Positions 1-4,748 of a DNA stretch of 4,748 nt are shown piece after piece. Origin of the DNA: a virus (taxonomy: Duplodnaviria; Heunggongvirae; Uroviricota; Caudoviricetes); the IMG/VR virus record IMGVR_UViG_2582580933_000017, positions 1-4,748 of that record, one strand, 5' to 3'. Every line of letters starts with the position of its first letter. Within the stretch, counting starts at the first letter, position 1. Position numbers and translations under genes: made by a program. The notes beneath the pieces were generated by a model, which saw only the letters and a program-made list of their open reading frames with translations, did no database searches and was not told where the DNA came from.

Positions 1-99
1 TTCCGCTTCTTCTGCTGGCAGTACAACGTTGCTACCAGGTCCGTATGTTTCGCGCCACTGCTTGATTGTCAGTAGTCGCTCTTTGGTAATAGTGATCAT
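1..99 (-). CDS. hypothetical protein, N-terminal fragment (gene continues beyond the left edge)
   Basis: Minus-strand ATG at 99..97 overlaps the TGA stop (98..96) of the upstream gene (ATGA). A purine-rich AAGGAA lies about 8 nt upstream. The frame stays open for 33 codons to position 1 (MITITKERLLTIKQWRETYGPGSNVVLPAEEAE...). No family recognised. Confidence 0.45.
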   Translation of the reverse strand, partial: MITITKERLLTIKQWRETYGPGSNVVLPAEEAE

Positions 100-611
100 G
101 CCGCGTTTCCTTCTTTCTTATTAACAATTACACCGTCATATATTTCATTAAGGTGCCCTCTCAACTCCATGCGCCTTAATGCAGATAACATGTAATCGCA
201 TTCAACCTGCTTATTTCCAGTAAATGGCTTATCGTCAGGATTACCCCAACAGCAATTACCCTTGGGCCACCCATGTACTTTCCGTACTCTTCCGTTAACA
301 ACGTGAAGTAATCCCCAGCCAGGTGGTAAATCCTCAACTGAAATAATTCCCGGCTCACTAATAAAGAATCGCCAGTCGCCCATTCCAAGAGATGGATTTT
401 TACGAAAACGCTTTTTTCTATCTGCCAACAAGTCAGCACGAGAACACTTCGCCTCTATCAGGCATGATGCTGAATTTCTGAATCCCATAGCATCTGGCTG
501 TTCTCCGGTACTGGTTACAGCTATAAAGCGGTCATGAAAACAAACCTTGAACCCGTTGCGCTTAAGGAACTTATACGCAATCTGACAGAGTTCGCGGTGT
601 GTTAACGCCAT
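96..611 (-). CDS. PD-(D/E)xK nuclease-fold protein (restriction-endonuclease-like), 171 aa
   Basis: ORF-track frame 96..683, trimmed to the ATG at 611..609, which has an AAGGAGAG Shine-Dalgarno 4 nt upstream and sits 1 nt after the upstream stop (TGATATG). The protein (MALTHRELCQIAYKFLKRNGFKVCFHDRFIAVTSTGEQPDAMGFRNSASCLIEAKCS...) has a helix-then-strands N-terminus and a PD...(E)xK signature (QPD followed 12 residues later by EAK). Fold call is by motif only. Confidence 0.7.
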   Translation of the reverse strand: MALTHRELCQIAYKFLKRNGFKVCFHDRFIAVTSTGEQPDAMGFRNSASCLIEAKCSRADLLADRKKRFRKNPSLGMGDWRFFISEPGIISVEDLPPGWGLLHVVNGRVRKVHGWPKGNCCWGNPDDKPFTGNKQVECDYMLSALRRMELRGHLNEIYDGVIVNKKEGNAA

Positions 612-612
612 A

Positions 613-801
613 TCACTCTCCTTTAGTGCGCAAGTGGTTTTTCCAGCGGTTTTGCGCCGCGCTGGGCTTTTTGCAAAAACCACAATCCATCATCCCGTAA
701 TATTTCATCAACCCCATCCGTCGGTTGCTGAGTCTCACCCACTGCCAGACGCCAGGAGCGTTTCTACGAACTAACAGAATCTTTGCTTTACGGTTTTTCA
801 T
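613..801 (-). CDS. small basic hypothetical protein, 62 aa (MKNRKAK family, copy 1)
   Basis: ORF-track ORF. Its ATG (801..799) overlaps the stop of the upstream paralogue (ATGA). Its C-terminus ...RTKGE is encoded by AAAGGAGAG, which doubles as the Shine-Dalgarno for the next gene. Lys/Arg-rich. Paralogous to 798..974. Confidence 0.55.
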   Translation of the reverse strand: MKNRKAKILLVRRNAPGVWQWVRLSNRRMGLMKYYGMMDCGFCKKPSAAQNRWKNHLRTKGE

Positions 802-802
802 C
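782..802. repeat. 21-bp near-exact direct repeat (copy 1) at the start of the MKNRKAK paralogues; second copy at 955..975
   Basis: TTACGGTTTTTCATC is identical at 788..802 and 961..975, extended by TTTGC(T/C) upstream (1 mismatch in 21). It corresponds to the ATGAAAAACCGTAA (MKNRK) starts of the two tandem paralogues on the minus strand. Confidence 0.75.
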
Positions 803-974
803 TTACAGCGTACCCTTTCTTCCGCCTGTTCTGTGACGCAGTAGGCTTACGCTTTGCGGCAAAAGCCACCTGACCAAATGGATGGAGTACCGCTATCTTA
901 TGGTTGCTAATAACCAGCTCCACCACACGCACAGGTCGCTGTAAAAAAAGTCGTTTTGCCTTACGGTTTTTCAT
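798..974 (-). CDS. small basic hypothetical protein, 58 aa (MKNRKAK family, copy 2)
   Basis: Not in the ORF track (below cutoff); found by manual translation: MKNRKAKRLFLQRPVRVVELVISNHKIAVLHPFGQVAFAAKRKPTASQNRRKKGYAVR. ATG at 974..972 with AGGAGA 8 nt upstream; stop TGA at 800..798. Shares the N-terminal MKNRKAK and the C-terminal KP(T/S)A(S/A)QNR(R/W)K motif with the 613..801 product. The DNA has a matching 15-bp exact repeat at both start sites. Confidence 0.5.
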   Translation of the reverse strand: MKNRKAKRLFLQRPVRVVELVISNHKIAVLHPFGQVAFAAKRKPTASQNRRKKGYAVR

Positions 975-1147
975 CGCTTTGCTCTCCTGCGTCTCTTTGC
1001 TGCTCGTCGTGCCGCTGCAATACCGGTATGGCGGCGCTTTGGTGCTGGGGTGATGTTGTCAGCCATCAGGACCTGTGGCTTTGCAATTAGCGCAGAAGCC
1101 CAAAAACGAGTCGGGTACGGTAACAAGCCGATACATGCCACACGCAT
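971..1147 (-). CDS. small hypothetical protein, 58 aa, with a poly-Arg/Lys C-terminal tail
   Basis: Not in the ORF track; found by manual translation: MRVACIGLLPYPTRFWASALIAKPQVLMADNITPAPKRRHTGIAAARRAAKRRRRAKR. ATG at 1147..1145 with a canonical AAGGAGG Shine-Dalgarno 6 nt upstream, overlapping the upstream TAA (TAATG). Stop TGA at 973..971 overlaps the next ATG (ATGA). It fills what would otherwise look like a 170-bp intergenic gap. An internal in-frame ATG at 1066 is an alternative start. Confidence 0.45.
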   Translation of the reverse strand: MRVACIGLLPYPTRFWASALIAKPQVLMADNITPAPKRRHTGIAAARRAAKRRRRAKR

Positions 1148-1635
1148 TACTCACCTCCTTTGATGCGAATGCCTGTTGCAATGCTGTTTATGATGCTGTC
1201 AGTGCATGGGGTAGAAAGCTGGGCATCTCCAGCAATTTTCATGACATCAACATCTGCATATCGAATACCGAGGTGTATCAGACCGGCTATACCTGACTTA
1301 AGCCGAGCATTTTCCATAAACAGATCCTTTGCCCGCTGTTTTTCTGCCTCAAGCTCAACGCGCAACTTCCCTACCGTTAGCGCAATATCCTCGTTCTCCT
1401 GATCGCGGGATTTGATGTATTGCTGGTTTCTTTCCCGTTCATCCAGTAGTGCCAGCACGGTTTCTGGTCCGGCCAGAAATTTGAAGGCGTTGAGCGCATC
1501 AATATCCACACCGTAATCTTTAAGTTCCTGTTCACTTAACAAATCATCATCAGCTGGCAACATTAACAGGCGTTCCATTGCTGGAATTGCACGTTCCGCC
1601 GCCTCACGCAGTGCCTGATAGTCAATCTTGCTCAC
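1147..1635 (-). CDS. coiled-coil phage protein, resembles the Ead/Ea22-like family (from memory, unverified)
   Basis: ORF-track ORF of 162 aa. GTG start at 1635..1633 preceded by AAGGAGGCAACCA, overlapping the upstream stop (GTGA). N-terminus SKIDYQALREAAERA and a charged coiled-coil-like middle (ERERNQQYIKSRDQENEDIALTVGKLRVELEAEKQRAKDL). C-terminus ...IKGGE is encoded by AAAGGAGGTGAG, which gives the Shine-Dalgarno for the next gene. Confidence 0.65.
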   Translation of the reverse strand: MSKIDYQALREAAERAIPAMERLLMLPADDDLLSEQELKDYGVDIDALNAFKFLAGPETVLALLDERERNQQYIKSRDQENEDIALTVGKLRVELEAEKQRAKDLFMENARLKSGIAGLIHLGIRYADVDVMKIAGDAQLSTPCTDSIINSIATGIRIKGGE

Positions 1636-1648
1636 TGGTTGCCTCCTT
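1631..1648. repeat. 18-bp exact direct repeat (copy 1) at a gene junction; second copy at 1951..1968
   Basis: CTCACTGGTTGCCTCCTT occurs at 1631..1648 and 1951..1968, with imperfect similarity for about 19 more bp (13 of 19 match). On the minus strand each copy encodes the end of one gene (GGNQ stop), an AAGGAGG Shine-Dalgarno and the GTG start of the next. Confidence 0.8.
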
Positions 1649-1955
1649 TTCGAAGCTGGGCGGCGATATCTTCGAGAACGCCATCAGAGAATGAGCGGTC
1701 AAAATCGCCTTCCGGCGCATTAGCCATAAACTCAGTAGAGGTAAGAATCATCCGGGCAATATCCGCGGCGTTCTTCGCGGTATCATCAATAAAACCAGCT
1801 TCCCAGGCAGCCAGCATTCTGTTCGCCACAAAATAAGCGCCTTCCTTGCGTGCTTCAGTCTTCACTTCAGCTAGAAAAGCATCGGTATGGCAATGGAATG
1901 AGGCGTTATTACCCACAATTTCACGCAAGCACATCATGTAAAAACGGTTACTCAC
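1632..1955 (-). CDS. hypothetical protein, 107 aa
   Basis: ORF-track frame 1632..1991, trimmed to the GTG at 1955..1953, which has the same AAGGAGGCAACCAGTGAG context as the next gene and overlaps the upstream stop (GTGA). The ATG at 1991 has only a poorly spaced GGGAG and would overlap the upstream gene by about 40 nt. C-terminus ...IAAQLRKGGNQ is shared with the 1952..2191 product. Confidence 0.6.
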   Translation of the reverse strand: MSNRFYMMCLREIVGNNASFHCHTDAFLAEVKTEARKEGAYFVANRMLAAWEAGFIDDTAKNAADIARMILTSTEFMANAPEGDFDRSFSDGVLEDIAAQLRKGGNQ

Positions 1956-1968
1956 TGGTTGCCTCCTT
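1951..1968. repeat. 18-bp exact direct repeat (copy 2) at a gene junction
   Basis: Same sequence as 1631..1648; see that entry. Confidence 0.8.
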
Positions 1969-2191
1969 GGCGGAGTTGCGCTGCGATGCATGAAAAAAAA
2001 GACTCCCGAGTGTGACAGTTAAGAGCTGGTGCGAACGCCGCGTTAAGAACGGCGGCATCACAGCCGTCATCAATATAGAGCGCAATTTTTTTCTCCAGGC
2101 GCGCTTTGGCTTCCTGCAACTGCATACCCCGGCACGCACGCGGGATATAATCAGCAATTTGAGCGATAGCTTTTTCGTTCTGTTTAAACAT
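1952..2191 (-). CDS. hypothetical protein, 79 aa
   Basis: ORF-track ORF. ATG at 2191..2189 with GAGGTG 4 nt upstream, overlapping the end of the upstream gene by 8 nt. C-terminus ...IAAQLRQGGNQ; its last codons CAAGGAGGCAACCAGTGA carry the Shine-Dalgarno and GTG start of the next gene. Confidence 0.55.
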   Translation of the reverse strand: MFKQNEKAIAQIADYIPRACRGMQLQEAKARLEKKIALYIDDGCDAAVLNAAFAPALNCHTRESFFSCIAAQLRQGGNQ

Positions 2192-2387
2192 GCTTCACCT
2201 CGATAGGCTTGATGGTGTCTAACAGCAGTCGGCGGCGCGTATTTTCTGCAAAATGGCGGCGTCCAGTTTCTTTGTGGTAAAACTCGTTTTTGCCAACGAC
2301 CCACATCCGCTCTGTTTGGTGCAGTTTTTTTACCTTCGGGCCATCTTTGGTGATCACGGTACCGGTATGGGTTTTTACGATTGTCAT
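2184..2387 (-). CDS. hypothetical protein, 67 aa
   Basis: ORF-track ORF. ATG at 2387..2385 overlaps the TGA of the PAPS-reductase-like gene (ATGA), with GAAGAGG upstream. Basic protein (MTIVKTHTGTVITKDGPKVKKLHQTERMWVVGKNEFYHKETGRRHF...). No family recognised. Confidence 0.55.
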   Translation of the reverse strand: MTIVKTHTGTVITKDGPKVKKLHQTERMWVVGKNEFYHKETGRRHFAENTRRRLLLDTIKPIEVKHV

Positions 2388-3262
2388 TCCACTACCTCTT
2401 CGAATTTCAACTCCAATTGGTCACCCCAGATTTCACATGATTCGGAACACGAACCAGTATCAAACCGCTTGGCCAGCACCATCGCCTGATACAAATTTCT
2501 GTAGTCACTGTCGGCATACATTCTGGCAATCCCGTCAAGCGTCAGGTGGCCACGGTACATAACGTCTTTACCTGTTCTGCGATGACCATCCCTGACGTGT
2601 TTGCCTGTAACCAGTTCATTAAAAACCCGCATCAGACCTGGTTCGTCTTTACATGCAAGCCCCAGCTTTTGCGTTGACTTTTTGATGCAAAAAACACAGT
2701 TCCCGAGGTGCTCCGGGATTTGCAAATCAAAAGGTTGTTTTCGCCACCACCGGATAACATCCGACTTATCAAAATCTGACAGTTCGGCAAGATACCGGAC
2801 GCCCGGTTTCGGTTTCAGCCTACGGGGTTCGTCCGCACGAATACCCAGCCATGTGATGTAATTCCCTCGCCCAAAATGGTCATCGCAATATTTCGTGAAA
2901 GGGGTGAGTTTTAGCCTGTCAGTACAGAACGCGCCGCCGATGTATGGCGTACCGTACTTTTTAACCATGTCCATAAACGGTTTAAGCACCGGCATTCGCG
3001 TCTGAATATCCTTTGGTTCCCATTCCGTATAACCATTTGGCTGCCCAATTTCTGGATTTATATCGACCTGCAACACCGTTAGCGGTACGTTCCAGAACTT
3101 CACAACCTCACGAATAAAGCGATACGTCAGAGGATGTTCACAGCCGGTATCCATAAAAATGAAATGGACGCTAGCGCCAGCTTTTCGCTGTGCTTCCATC
3201 AGATGAACGAGATAAGCCGATGTTCGTCCACCTGAAAAGCTGACGACTTGATGCATACTCAC
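2384..3262 (-). CDS. phosphoadenosine phosphosulfate (PAPS) reductase family protein, PP-loop ATP pyrophosphatase fold (CysH/DndC-like)
   Basis: ORF-track ORF of 292 aa. N-terminal PP-loop VVSFSGGRTSAY (SGGxxS). The stretch FMDTGCEHPLTYRFIREV matches the CysH-family DTG...ETYRFI region. C-terminal cysteines (GNCVFC and GSCSESC) could bind a metal or Fe-S cluster. Start is GTG at 3262 (AGGA 7 nt upstream) or ATG at 3256; both in frame. Confidence 0.85.
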   Translation of the reverse strand: MSMHQVVSFSGGRTSAYLVHLMEAQRKAGASVHFIFMDTGCEHPLTYRFIREVVKFWNVPLTVLQVDINPEIGQPNGYTEWEPKDIQTRMPVLKPFMDMVKKYGTPYIGGAFCTDRLKLTPFTKYCDDHFGRGNYITWLGIRADEPRRLKPKPGVRYLAELSDFDKSDVIRWWRKQPFDLQIPEHLGNCVFCIKKSTQKLGLACKDEPGLMRVFNELVTGKHVRDGHRRTGKDVMYRGHLTLDGIARMYADSDYRNLYQAMVLAKRFDTGSCSESCEIWGDQLELKFEEVVE

Positions 3263-3265
3263 GGT

Positions 3266-3844
3266 TTATTCCTGAATGCGCTTAAACTCGATTACCCATA
3301 CCAACGGGTTAGATAGCCAGTTATCCTGCCCGTAAATACTGCGCCAGATATCACCAAAACCAACGCGATAAACAGCTTCAGATGGCGTAATCTTGTACGT
3401 CGCCGGAGTTGCGCCTTCTGCTTTAGCATCTGCCTCGCTCATGTCATGCAGCCGTTCCACACGCACGTCGGTAATTTCCAGAAGAATGCGCGATGCCCAG
3501 CGCGGCATGTGAATTGATGGCGTCCACTTTTCTGATACTGGTTTATTACAAACCTCGACCGGAACCCGGTGCGTTTGTTCTGTCCAGGAGTTACGCACGC
3601 TTGCGCGATAAACCAGCGTTGCGACGTCCGTCGCTTTGCCATGTACCCGGTAGGTTTCGCGAACCCAAATACGATCGCCCGGTTGACCATATGGACAATG
3701 CTTGGCAAGCAACTCTGCGGCCACTGCCCGTCCATAGAATTTTTCTTCAACAATCCTGCGAGTCTGTGTTTTATTCCCGCCAAGAATTGCCCGGACCATC
3801 TCATCGTTAAAAATCATGCCGCGCTCTTTCACTTCGCCTTTCAT
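3266..3844 (-). CDS. ASCH-domain protein (PUA-like fold), YqfB-like ends with a large internal insertion
   Basis: ORF-track ORF of 192 aa. N-terminal ILGGNKTQTRR matches the ASCH GxKxxExR-type motif (recalled E. coli YqfB: ILAGRKTITIRD). C-terminal VWVIEFKRI matches the YqfB end FYVIEFKCL. ATG at 3844 has an AAGGGGGA Shine-Dalgarno; an alternative in-frame start is the ATG at 3817 (MIFNDEM...), where the ASCH alignment begins. Confidence 0.75.
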   Translation of the reverse strand: MKGEVKERGMIFNDEMVRAILGGNKTQTRRIVEEKFYGRAVAAELLAKHCPYGQPGDRIWVRETYRVHGKATDVATLVYRASVRNSWTEQTHRVPVEVCNKPVSEKWTPSIHMPRWASRILLEITDVRVERLHDMSEADAKAEGATPATYKITPSEAVYRVGFGDIWRSIYGQDNWLSNPLVWVIEFKRIQE

Positions 3845-3853
3845 ACATCCCCC

Positions 3854-3940
3854 TTACCCATGTGCGACGATGCCGCCAAAAGTGATAGAGAACAGCCAGA
3901 AATAGATCGCGGCCATAATGATTTTGAATGCCGTGTTCAT
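3854..3940 (-). CDS. small hydrophobic (single predicted transmembrane helix) peptide, 28 aa
   Basis: Not in the ORF track; found by manual translation: MNTAFKIIMAAIYFWLFSITFGGIVAHG. ATG at 3940..3938 with AGGAG 8 nt upstream (3953..3949). Stop TAA at 3856..3854; its last codons plus GGGGGA form the Shine-Dalgarno of the ASCH gene 9 nt downstream. Confidence 0.45.
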   Translation of the reverse strand: MNTAFKIIMAAIYFWLFSITFGGIVAHG

Positions 3941-3967
3941 ATTTTCAGCTCCTGTGATTGATTGGAT

Positions 3968-3999
3968 ACATGCCGCGCCTTGCGGCATGTTTTAATTTT
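3968..3999 (+). terminator. plus-strand-oriented intrinsic-terminator-like hairpin (also a perfect palindrome that could be an operator)
   Basis: Perfect 9-bp inverted repeat ACATGCCGC (3968..3976) / GCGGCATGT (3982..3990) with loop GCCTT, followed on the plus strand by TTTAATTTTC. No T-tract follows it on the minus strand. It lies in the gap between the HAD gene stop (4039) and the small-peptide Shine-Dalgarno (3953). Confidence 0.4.
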
Positions 4000-4023
4000 C
4001 ACTTTCTCTGTTTTAAAAATCAA
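3995..4023 (-). promoter_or_regulatory. candidate sigma70-type promoter for the minus-strand genes downstream
   Basis: On the minus strand: TTGATT (4023..4018), a 17-nt AT-rich spacer, then GAAAAT (4000..3995). This would start transcription at or inside the palindrome at 3968..3990. Weak consensus match (4/6 and 4/6); not verified. Confidence 0.25.
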
Positions 4024-4038
4024 GATTTATTAGAGCAA

Positions 4039-4545
4039 TTATTGTTGATGAAGAAGTGCATTTTCATATTCCCTGACCATTAACGTAAGTACGCCGTGAC
4101 TCCTGAAAACACGCGCCACTTCAATCTTATCTTCCAGCGCGAACGCAATTTTACTTAGACCAATTTTCTTCAGGAGATCAATCTTTGCAGGGCCGTCATT
4201 TCTGTCATCGGTGGCAGGACGCATAGATAGCAAAGGCTCAGCCCCATTTGTTACGTGCTTACGCAGCCAGGCTCGTGTTTTATCCCTTGCGATCTCACAG
4301 CGCCCGGTTACAAACCAGACCGTGTAAACGTTAAATAACTGGCGCACCATATCAATAACCGGAGTGATGGGAGTATCGGTGTCACAGGCGAGATTAAACT
4401 CGTTCCAGTCCTTTGTTAATGCACCTTTACCTGGTGGCGGAAGCAAATGCAGTCTGTCTTCAGTTGCCTCTGATATTGTTCCATCAATATCGACTATGAC
4501 GATATACGGACGTTCCTGGTGTGCGTGTTTATTGAAAATACTCAA
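4039..4545 (-). CDS. HAD-superfamily phosphatase (nucleotidase or polynucleotide 3'-phosphatase-like)
   Basis: ORF-track ORF of 168 aa. HAD motif I IVIVDIDGT (DxDGT) near the N-terminus and a motif II-like VWFVTGR. Start is TTG at 4545..4543 with a GAGGAGGG Shine-Dalgarno 3-4 nt upstream; there is no in-frame ATG further upstream. Confidence 0.75.
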   Translation of the reverse strand: MSIFNKHAHQERPYIVIVDIDGTISEATEDRLHLLPPPGKGALTKDWNEFNLACDTDTPITPVIDMVRQLFNVYTVWFVTGRCEIARDKTRAWLRKHVTNGAEPLLSMRPATDDRNDGPAKIDLLKKIGLSKIAFALEDKIEVARVFRSHGVLTLMVREYENALLHQQ

Positions 4546-4563
4546 ATGCCCTCCTCATTGGAC

Positions 4564-4598
4564 GAAAAAAATGCTGGTGGGCGCACTCCACCAGCATT
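4564..4598 (-). terminator. rho-independent terminator, minus-strand orientation
   Basis: Perfect 11-bp inverted repeat AATGCTGGTGG (4570..4580) / CCACCAGCATT (4588..4598) with a 7-nt loop. On the minus strand it is followed by a run of 7 T (plus-strand A-run 4564..4570). It lies between the stop of the upstream partial gene (4618) and the HAD Shine-Dalgarno (4556..4549). Confidence 0.65.
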
Positions 4599-4617
4599 AA
4601 AAGTGACACTGTAACTA

Positions 4618-4748
4618 TCAGCGGACGTAAATAGTGCCGCCGTTCTCTTTTTCCCATGCATCGCTACGTGCATAGCAAACATCGAGAAGTCTTCTTGCCG
4701 CTGTTTCCTCTAAACCCAATTCGACAACCAACTGCTCATGACGGCGGG
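4618..4748 (-). CDS. hypothetical protein, C-terminal fragment (gene begins beyond the right edge)
   Basis: Minus-strand frame open from the window edge for 42 codons (...RRHEQLVVELGLEETAARRLLDVCYARSDAWEKENGGTIYVR) to TGA at 4620..4618, just upstream of the terminator. No family recognised. Confidence 0.45.
   Translation of the reverse strand, partial: RRHEQLVVELGLEETAARRLLDVCYARSDAWEKENGGTIYVR

Follow-up and report, generated by a model that had tools for sequence, protein, structure and literature searches.

Bacteriophage P1 is a classical model phage and a workhorse of transduction and cloning, and resistance and defence genes often travel on P1-like phage-plasmids in the Enterobacteriaceae. 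Several kinds of described system come close to the locus studied here. Type I toxins, such as Hok, Ldr, TisB, Ibs, ShoB, DinQ and Fst, have antisense RNA antitoxins. Small single-pass membrane proteins of enterobacteria and phages, such as KdpF, AcrZ, MgtS and PmrR, are often missed by gene callers. Stem-loops at the very 5' end of a transcript, of the type known from the ompA 5' untranslated region (UTR) and from the literature on RNase E and RppH, protect E. coli mRNAs against 5'-end-dependent decay. We analysed a 4,748-nt stretch of Caudoviricetes DNA (IMG/VR record IMGVR_UViG_2582580933_000017, positions 1 to 4,748), hereafter the window, in which a 28-aa open reading frame (ORF) on the minus strand is preceded by a GC-rich hairpin. 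A sequence-only reading of the window had proposed that ORF and hairpin together form a type I toxin-antitoxin-like locus.

We arrive at another explanation, to which we assign a probability of roughly 0.7: the ORF is a genuine small membrane-protein gene that opens the C1-repressed early operon Op88/OpmgT of P1-like phages, and the hairpin lies in the sense mRNA of that operon. The window originates from a P1/P7-like phage-plasmid (Punavirus), with 97% identity to P1 and P7 in this region, and its minus strand holds every long ORF. Positions 3700-4200 match 929 E. coli records and 19 phage genomes, including P1, P7, SJ46, RCS47 and JL22, at 90-100% identity, and 908 of the 938 matching places in E. 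coli are plasmid-borne. The order of the homologous region in the P1 and P7 records is pmgS, pap, a C1 operator, two predicted sigma-70 promoters (P1pmgT and P2pmgT), and finally pmgT or upf86.8; this last gene is pmgT in P1 and the ASCH-type upf86.8 in P7 and in the window. Given these annotations, the 28-aa ORF and the hairpin are placed in the leader of a C1-controlled operon and not in an anonymous spacer.

The C1 operator, named Op88 or OpmgT in P1 and Op(hea) in P7, has the sequence ATTGCTCTAATAAATCT and lies at 4023..4039 on the minus strand, the homologous position carrying a protein_bind feature in the records of P1 (NC_005856) and P7. It fits the 17-bp class of C1 operators (consensus ATTGCTCTAATAAATTT), C1 binding being taken from the record annotations. 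Abutting it is the predicted sigma-70 promoter P1pmgT (3995..4023, minus strand), annotated in the P1 record and scoring 8/12 in our scan, with a -35 box TTGATT (4023-4018), a spacer of 17 nt and a -10 box GAAAAT (4000-3995). With an operator and an abutting predicted sigma-70 promoter in place, the locus is, judged from its annotation and sequence, a C1-repressed operon of P1-like phages. The operator sequence, its position against the pap stop codon and the promoter prediction are identical to those of the P1 operon. The reference annotation differs in that it begins the operon at pmgT (P1) or upf86.8 (P7), without the 28-aa ORF or the hairpin.

The ORF (MNTAFKIIMAAIYFWLFSITFGGIVAHG; 3854..3940, minus strand, ATG at 3940-3938, stop ending at 3854) was present as the sequence-only reading had described it, with a Shine-Dalgarno sequence AGGAG (3949..3953) 8 nt before the ATG. 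The predicted peptide is hydrophobic, as had also been claimed, with a single helix; its best 19-residue Kyte-Doolittle window averages 2.10 over residues 7-25. The ORF is not annotated in the reference P1 and P7 genomes, nor in the RefSeq E. coli features among the matches listed. Annotation elsewhere is sporadic, consisting of a 44-aa 'membrane protein' in SJ46, a 44-aa hypothetical protein in JL22 and scattered database entries. The 44-aa version starts at an ATG at 3988 and was rejected, as its extension consists of the hairpin and the leader; this ATG is absent in the other lineages, so that the 28-aa start is the conserved one. Since ORFs of 20 aa or more number 88 in the window and terminator-like sites 10 (4.8 +/- 2.3 in shuffles), the case for the ORF and the hairpin must rest on comparison with relatives.

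Close relatives were too similar to be informative, and diverged relatives were therefore sought. Four lineages were compared: the P1 group, L233, JK004/L184 and L170-172. JK004 is a Cronobacter phage, and L184, L170-172 and L233 are metagenome or run assemblies. JK004, whose Pap protein is 73% identical, has at the equivalent place an operator, a hairpin, CCAATCAATCAC-C-GGAGC, an ATG and a 53-aa ORF that begins MHLIFKLAITAFYAWMLTVVITSF. Further 53-aa forms were found on L170 and L171/L172 in a search with the JK004 ORF. An independent 48-aa member, P0026 (MNTAFKLAMAAFYFWIFCIAFNGLVK...), was recovered at E = 8.8e-5 by a profile search of 1.8 billion representative proteins and is encoded on L233. 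Pairwise BLASTP between the forms gave E = 2e-12, 5e-6 and 3e-4. All of these homologues, of 48 aa (L233) or 53 aa (JK004, L170-172), occupy the matching position. In JK004 (L009), gene_94 is annotated at 3632-3748 from an internal ATG; judging by the conserved Shine-Dalgarno sequence and the homologues, the gene in truth begins at 3587 and encodes 53 aa (3587-3748). A search for further JK004-like relatives by way of pap in PLSDB, IMG/VR and one-genome-per-species contigs returned the P1 group only.

The P1 and L233 peptides share 17 of 25 residues, with pS at 0.80 (saturated) and pN at 0.19, and the 53-aa forms show dN/dS of 0.22-0.39 over their full length. K6, A11 and W15 are invariant in all lineages, the lysine standing ahead of a hydrophobic window that scores 1.97-2.34 across all forms. 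The conserved part is the N-terminal helix; the tails vary in length and sequence between lineages. The start codon is conserved, GGAGC is unchanged across all lineages, and the Shine-Dalgarno sequence does not vary among P1-group copies. We examined about 210 P1-group loci from viral and metagenome contigs, some of which were fetched twice, and found no nonsense or frameshift mutation except in four loci with an insertion at codon 20. The unique mutations in these copies comprise 9 synonymous and 14 nonsynonymous changes. Chance does not explain such conservation of the ORF and the hairpin in diverged relatives, and the small ORF is, on this comparative evidence, a genuine gene for a predicted small single-pass membrane protein whose sequence is under purifying selection. 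The conservation of peptide and hairpin in related elements that the sequence-only reading had suggested as a check is thus borne out, both being kept in the diverged lineages.

The codon-20 insertions, found in L044 and L065 and their duplicates L120 and L156, exchange the C-terminus of the ORF for '...FSINKKTLIVSIVINNN...'. Their occurrence in P1-like contigs suggests that the peptide is dispensable at least for plasmid maintenance. Gly22 and Gly23 (codons 22-23, 3877-3871) are a second place of change, with five independent nonsynonymous changes in the P1 group (G22D, G22C, G23D, G23S and others). This cluster probably marks the beginning of the poorly conserved C-terminal part.

No homologue of the peptide was detected beyond P1-like elements, and no link to a known family, in word-indexed searches with the 44- and 53-aa forms, the profile search of 1.8 billion proteins or tblastn against phage genomes. 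Pfam and NCBIfam returned no match to the 28-aa peptide at E <= 10, and the PHROGs matches were insignificant. Our reading of the literature turned up neither transcripts nor start sites nor small-protein data on this locus. The gene appears to found a new small-protein family, restricted to P1-like elements and accompanied by an overlooked leader structure. It resembles KdpF, AcrZ, MgtS and PmrR in its size of 28-53 aa, its one predicted transmembrane helix, its N-side lysine, its strong Shine-Dalgarno sequence and its omission by gene callers. It differs from them in having no sequence relationship to any of them and in being confined to P1-like elements.

The position of the ORF raises the question of whether its translation, rather than its product, is what matters. 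As a leader or upstream ORF it would keep Rho off the leader and pass ribosomes on to the next gene, the peptide itself being functionless. Such a role would fit a first cistron that stops 10 nt short of the following start codon in the P1 group and overlaps it in relatives (ATGA / TGATG), and it would also accommodate a poorly conserved C-terminal part and total lengths of 28, 48 and 53 aa by lineage. We consider it unlikely, however, since the first 25 residues have been retained in the face of saturated synonymous sites, the hydrophobic helix with its three invariant residues recurs across lineages, and the dN/dS values of the 53-aa forms hold over their full length.

Conservation extends upstream of the gene. 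A leader motif, CCAATCAATCAC (3954..3965, minus strand), lies directly upstream of the Shine-Dalgarno sequence, and AAYCAATCA[CT]-N-GGAGC is present in all four lineages despite saturated synonymous sites in the ORF. Its retention under these conditions implies a sequence-specific role. Inspection of the leader revealed no convincing CsrA site and no convincing complementarity to 16S rRNA. Control by the c4 antisense RNA of P1 was considered and rejected: its a/b targets (TTGACAG and GTTAGTGA) are absent from the leader, and the longest complementarity is 7 nt and falls outside the ribosome-binding site. Within the P1 group, nucleotide diversity (pi) has its minimum between the hairpin and codon 21: it is 0.017 in the hairpin, 0.019 in the leader, 0.008 in the Shine-Dalgarno sequence and spacer and 0.004 in ORF codons 1-21. 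The operator, the promoter spacer, the end of pap and the last ORF codons are more diverse, at 0.04-0.09. The four lineages share one order of elements, namely operator, -35 box, 17 nt, -10 box, 3-7 nt, GC-rich hairpin, AAYCAATCA[CT]NGGAGC, ATG and hydrophobic ORF.

The hairpin (3968..3990) pairs over 9 bp without a mismatch (ACATGCCGC/GCGGCATGT) around a loop of 5 nt, and it ends 14 nt upstream of the Shine-Dalgarno sequence, in agreement with its earlier description. Its free energy is -16.3 kcal/mol on the minus strand (z = -4.5) and -18.6 kcal/mol on the plus strand (z = -5.2), and none of 200 shuffles was as stable. The stems at the equivalent position are unrelated in sequence: ACATGCCGC in the P1 group, AAGGCCAC in L233, TTGGCRGTCRC in L170-172 and GGCCGC in JK004. 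Across lineages, 7 of the 11 pairs of the RNAalifold consensus stem show compensatory double changes, and an A-U to G-C double change distinguishes the stems of L170 and L171. The hairpin is thus, as far as the alignments tell, conserved as a structure and not as a sequence, with pairing kept by compensatory change.

Because RNA tolerates G·U but not the complementary A·C, single-sided transitions in a stem indicate which strand folds. Seven such transitions were identified in the P1 group, L184 and L171/L172. Six of them leave a G·U pair in the sense RNA, where the antisense RNA has A·C, and one does the opposite; a further stem change, at the loop-closing pair, is a transversion. In the six G·U variants, the sense hairpin exceeds its antisense counterpart in stability by 1.2-4.7 kcal/mol. 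This strand bias toward the sense RNA is suggestive only. The hairpin belongs to the sense transcript whichever promoter is used.

These same data bear on whether the inverted repeat acts as DNA, as an operator for a lineage-specific DNA-binding protein, and not as an RNA structure. It is a perfect palindrome adjoining a promoter, it has a separate sequence in each lineage, and JK004, L170-172 and L233 encode a protein of about 105 aa right after the small ORF, with a weak match to MarR_2 (winged helix) in L171. The P1 group, however, keeps the hairpin and lacks this downstream gene, and GC-rich stems of 6-11 bp with variable loops are typical of RNA hairpins. DNA recognition moreover predicts no bias of single-sided changes toward G·U on one strand. 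We regard a DNA operator as very improbable. The fallback offered by the sequence-only reading, an ordinary small membrane protein with the hairpin as either an operator or a stability element, is consequently favoured by the comparative evidence in its first and last parts and disfavoured as regards the operator. One lineage offered a separate candidate function for the hairpin, an RfaH ops-like element: L171 matches GGCGGTAGnnTG at 9 of 12 positions by eye. The other lineages and the P1 group do not match, and we take this resemblance to be a coincidence.

The predicted start point of P1pmgT, at about 3986-3990, falls at the base of the hairpin. Every lineage has the same -35/17-nt/-10 geometry after the operator, with TTGATT as the -35 box (TTGTTT in JK004) and GAAAAT (P1 group), AAGAAT (L233), CAGAAT (L170-172) or AATAAT (JK004) as the -10 hexamer; the hairpin follows 3-7 nt further on. 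If transcription begins 7 nt after the -10 box, the start would lie 0-1 nt from a remaining stem of 6-8 bp in all four lineages, this +1 being a prediction and an alternative upstream promoter being present. The alternative is a promoter-like site, ATGAAA-18-AATAAT (4038..4067, minus strand), which scores 9/12 and whose -10 box overlaps the 5' edge of the operator. Analogous sites are ATGACA-18-TATGAT in L170 and a bare TATAAT in JK004; L233 has in their stead TTGACA-16-CATCAT, wholly upstream of its operator. The second promoter of the P1 annotation, P2pmgT, has a -10 box (TAAAAC) that is polymorphic in the P1 group, where TAAAGC, TAAGGC and TAAGAC also occur, which makes this predicted promoter doubtful.

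On the plus strand the hairpin is directly followed by the T-run TTTAATTTTC (3991-4000), which is contiguous only in the P1 group. This T-run corresponds to the complement of the P1pmgT -10 box and the A-rich start region, and the 'oppositely oriented terminator' of the sequence-only reading would accordingly be the same hairpin read on the other strand. The most fitting interpretation of the conserved object is a stem-loop at the 5' end of the mRNA of the operon itself. Like the ompA-type stem-loops, it has a stable stem 0-1 nt from the predicted 5' end, then a single-stranded leader and a Shine-Dalgarno sequence, and it is conserved in structure and not in sequence. The difference is that the 5' end here is a predicted one, and the hairpin would be internal if the upstream promoter were used.

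Put together, these features suggest the following course of events. When C1 leaves the operator (4039-4023), RNA polymerase with sigma-70 would start at TTGATT-17-GAAAAT. The first 23 nt or so of the transcript would fold as the 3990-3968 stem-loop, an ompA-type 5'-terminal hairpin that would guard the mRNA from 5'-end-dependent decay. With ribosomes recruited by the conserved leader and AGGAG, the peptide would be translated, and its residues 7-25 would form one transmembrane helix. The stop codon, 10 nt before the next start or overlapping it in relatives, would then hand ribosomes to the first gene of a variable cargo region. The transcription start, the stabilisation of the mRNA, the membrane insertion and the translational coupling in this scheme are all inferred.

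Several points weigh against the scheme. The start of transcription is a prediction from sequence, and if the 4067-4038 site, with its score of 9/12, is used, the hairpin would be internal to the 5' UTR at about +41 and not 5'-terminal. The strand bias of the stem changes rests on seven events, for which the one-sided binomial probability is about 0.06. The per-site ratio of nonsynonymous to synonymous changes in the P1 group, 0.43, is only moderately low, and the peptide may yet be toxic. Finally, with UUUUUAUUUU after it, the plus-strand hairpin of the P1 group makes a textbook intrinsic terminator, which might serve a separate function.

That last point leads to the junction of the operon with its cargo. 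BLAST alignments of many loci break at 3850, a recombination junction 4 nt past the stop of the small ORF that forms the left edge of 'variable region 8'. This region of P1-like phage-plasmids has been described (PMC9603915). The cargo beyond it consists either of ASCH- or pmgT-type genes co-directional with the ORF or of a convergent type I hsdR. The convergent genes give reason to ask whether the P1-group hairpin serves mainly or additionally as a plus-strand intrinsic terminator, insulating the operator, pap and structural genes from antisense transcription out of the cargo region, at the border of a gene-exchange hotspot and with no antitoxin gene involved. As the sequence-only reading had noted, the terminator-like tract is indeed there: our terminator scan found 10 pairs, 6 of them G-C, followed by TTTAATTTTC, the make-up of a Rho-independent terminator on that strand, and the 9-10-bp GC-rich stem is followed by TTTTTATTTTC in most of the P1 group. 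A type I hsdR gene pointing at the small ORF is present in 58 of about 230 fetched loci (some contigs twice); the hsdR stop is about 75 nt from that of the ORF as measured in IncF copies. Between hsdR and 3968-3990 there is no other hairpin with a T-run. Transcripts from hsdR would hence cross the entire small ORF in antisense and meet their first canonical plus-strand terminator at 3968-3990. The gene lxr of P1 is likewise transcribed toward the hairpin site. On the other side, the genes of the window are co-directional with the ORF for 3.8 kb downstream, leaving nothing obvious to terminate; the T-run is absent in the three other lineages although the hairpin is kept; it coincides with the complement of a conserved -10 box; and the stem variants favour the sense RNA. 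We hold a terminator function of this kind to be possible, if less probable than its absence, and it is compatible with a sense-strand leader hairpin, the two not being exclusive.

The neighbourhood of the junction contains further traces of exchange. Some 280 plasmids, both of the inspected ones being conjugative IncF plasmids, retain 84 nt of the ORF (3850-3933) as a remnant flanked by hsdR and IS1. In L007, an inverted repeat of 10 bp (CTTGCGGGTT/AACCCGCAAG; 3930-3975) directly follows hsdR; its T-run precedes it in the direction of hsdR, and it is therefore a canonical terminator in neither orientation. Database variants that read '...VAHGY' and then continue into unrelated sequence suggest a second junction inside the stop codon.

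The toxin-antitoxin proposal can now be weighed against this background. It holds that the peptide is a membrane toxin and that a plus-strand RNA of about 70 nt, running from about 3926 to the 3968-3990 terminator, blocks the Shine-Dalgarno sequence and the start codon. The locus does share with type I toxins a short peptide, of less than 60 aa, with one hydrophobic helix and, in the P1 group, a canonical terminator-like element on the opposite strand just past the ribosome-binding site. P1 itself supplies a precedent in another C1-controlled operon, where the early promoter PkilA (P53) is accompanied by PaskilA (P53as), from which a documented transcript runs antisense to the 5' end of the first gene, kilA (NC_005856). 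This precedent makes an antisense RNA a reasonable idea, although its defining features are missing at the 28-aa ORF: a sigma-70 antisense promoter and a start are annotated at kilA, and no comparable promoter is found here.

The proposed promoter of the antisense RNA is very weak. The sequence-only reading had pointed to CATAAT (3914..3919, plus strand) as a -10 box lacking a convincing -35. The hexamer is present, its best -35 partner matches at 1 of 6 positions, it has no TG extension, and we judge that it is not a credible promoter. Plus-strand candidates in 3800-3975 do not exceed 7/12, with none at all from the consensus scan. Read on the coding strand, CATAAT is codons 8-9 (ATT ATG), and it is replaced by CATGGC in L233, TATGGC in JK004 and AACGGC in L170. 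The proposed end fares similarly: in L233, L170 and JK004 the hairpin persists, but the terminator scan finds no antisense hairpin with a T-run, and the tails that follow it are TAATCATTCTT, ATGATTCTGA and GGTGAGTATT, respectively. A plus-strand RNA of 60-80 nt starting at CATAAT is thus not supported, although an atypical antisense promoter is conceivable.

Other evidence points the same way. The stem variants favour the sense RNA. The gene stands at the head of a polycistronic operon under repressor control, and in relatives its stop overlaps the next start. C1 repression already silences the gene in lysogens, and the addiction function of P1 is phd-doc, located in the same region. Pfam and NCBIfam, which include curated type I toxin families, gave no match. 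Rfam, searched permissively on 3700-4200, gave none above threshold; GcvB (17 bits, gathering threshold 42) and isrK (12 bits, 50) are matches at the level of chance, driven by the terminator-like hairpin. The locus consequently differs from type I toxins in lacking a family match, a credible antisense promoter and conserved antisense features, and in standing first in a polycistronic operon. A type I toxin-antitoxin module is not supported, and we rate it as decidedly improbable.

A related but looser proposal is that the P1-group peptide is a membrane-active early effector, for example in host killing, exclusion or anti-defence, that is silenced in cis by a plus-strand RNA ending at 3968-3990. 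The silencing could come from a short, dedicated transcript with an atypical promoter, or from the 3' UTR of a convergent cargo gene such as hsdR. We see this combination of effector and silencing RNA as a long shot. If it were true, an antisense layer resembling type I toxin-antitoxin systems or P53as would lie on top of C1 repression and guard the entry to a hotspot of gene exchange.

We return to the operon reading and to the genes around it. Upstream lies pap (4039..4545, minus strand), a 3'-phosphatase or HAD-PNKP-like gene from the ORF list that is annotated as pap in P1 and P7 and matches PF25109 (HAD_PNKP) in relatives. It is the upstream neighbour of the small ORF's operon, and its stop codon shares 1 nt with the operator. 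In the window (4039-4598 region) pap has the operator at its stop, and only 25 nt ahead of its start lies a strong minus-strand terminator (4598-4570). The L233 lineage lacks pap, and the operator and the small ORF there come right after pmgS (L233 2834-3001). The gene looks like an inserted module.

Two observations concern the operator. A second, inverted copy of it is present in L170 (1687-1723) and in L171 and L172 (2398-2434), with the form ATTGTTCTAATAAAT ... ATTTATTAGAATAAT-like; it would create a bivalent operator over the promoter in these three, and the P1 group has a single site. The operator also contains GCUCU (4031-4035), complementary on the minus strand to GGAGC of the Shine-Dalgarno region (3949-3953), and the two are paired in minimum-free-energy folds that include the operator. 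Read-through from pap might accordingly yield transcripts whose ribosome-binding site is occluded, which would not apply to those initiated downstream of the operator.

Downstream, the next cistron (3266..3844, minus strand; from the ORF list) encodes an ASCH-domain-type protein, termed 'ASCH domain-containing protein' in RefSeq and corresponding to Upf86.8 of P7. It has its own Shine-Dalgarno sequence, GGGGGA, directly after the stop of the small ORF. Its first 18 or so codons (MKGEVKERGMIFNDEMVR..., 3789-3844) are common to pmgT of P1 and the ASCH-type gene of P7 and the window, and the genes diverge thereafter, which suggests a further junction near 3789. The cargo operon of the window (96-3844) additionally includes a PAPS-reductase-domain protein (2384-3262), an Ead/Ea22-like protein (1147-1635) and several small ORFs without a family. 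These genes resemble lambdoid early accessory genes.

What the locus adds is a conserved gene for a predicted membrane protein of 28-53 aa, together with a leader hairpin, at the head of the C1-controlled Op88 operon, both missed in the reference annotation of P1. It also holds a caution for genome scans, as a wrong-strand hairpin with a T-run beside a promoter may simply be a 5' stem-loop next to an AT-rich -10 box. The small gene and its hairpin do not overturn the current understanding of these phages. With the gene ending 4 nt before the left junction of 'variable region 8', gene and leader may act as a constant expression platform for varied cargo, behind which ASCH and PAPS-reductase-like genes, pmgT or a type I restriction system have been slotted.

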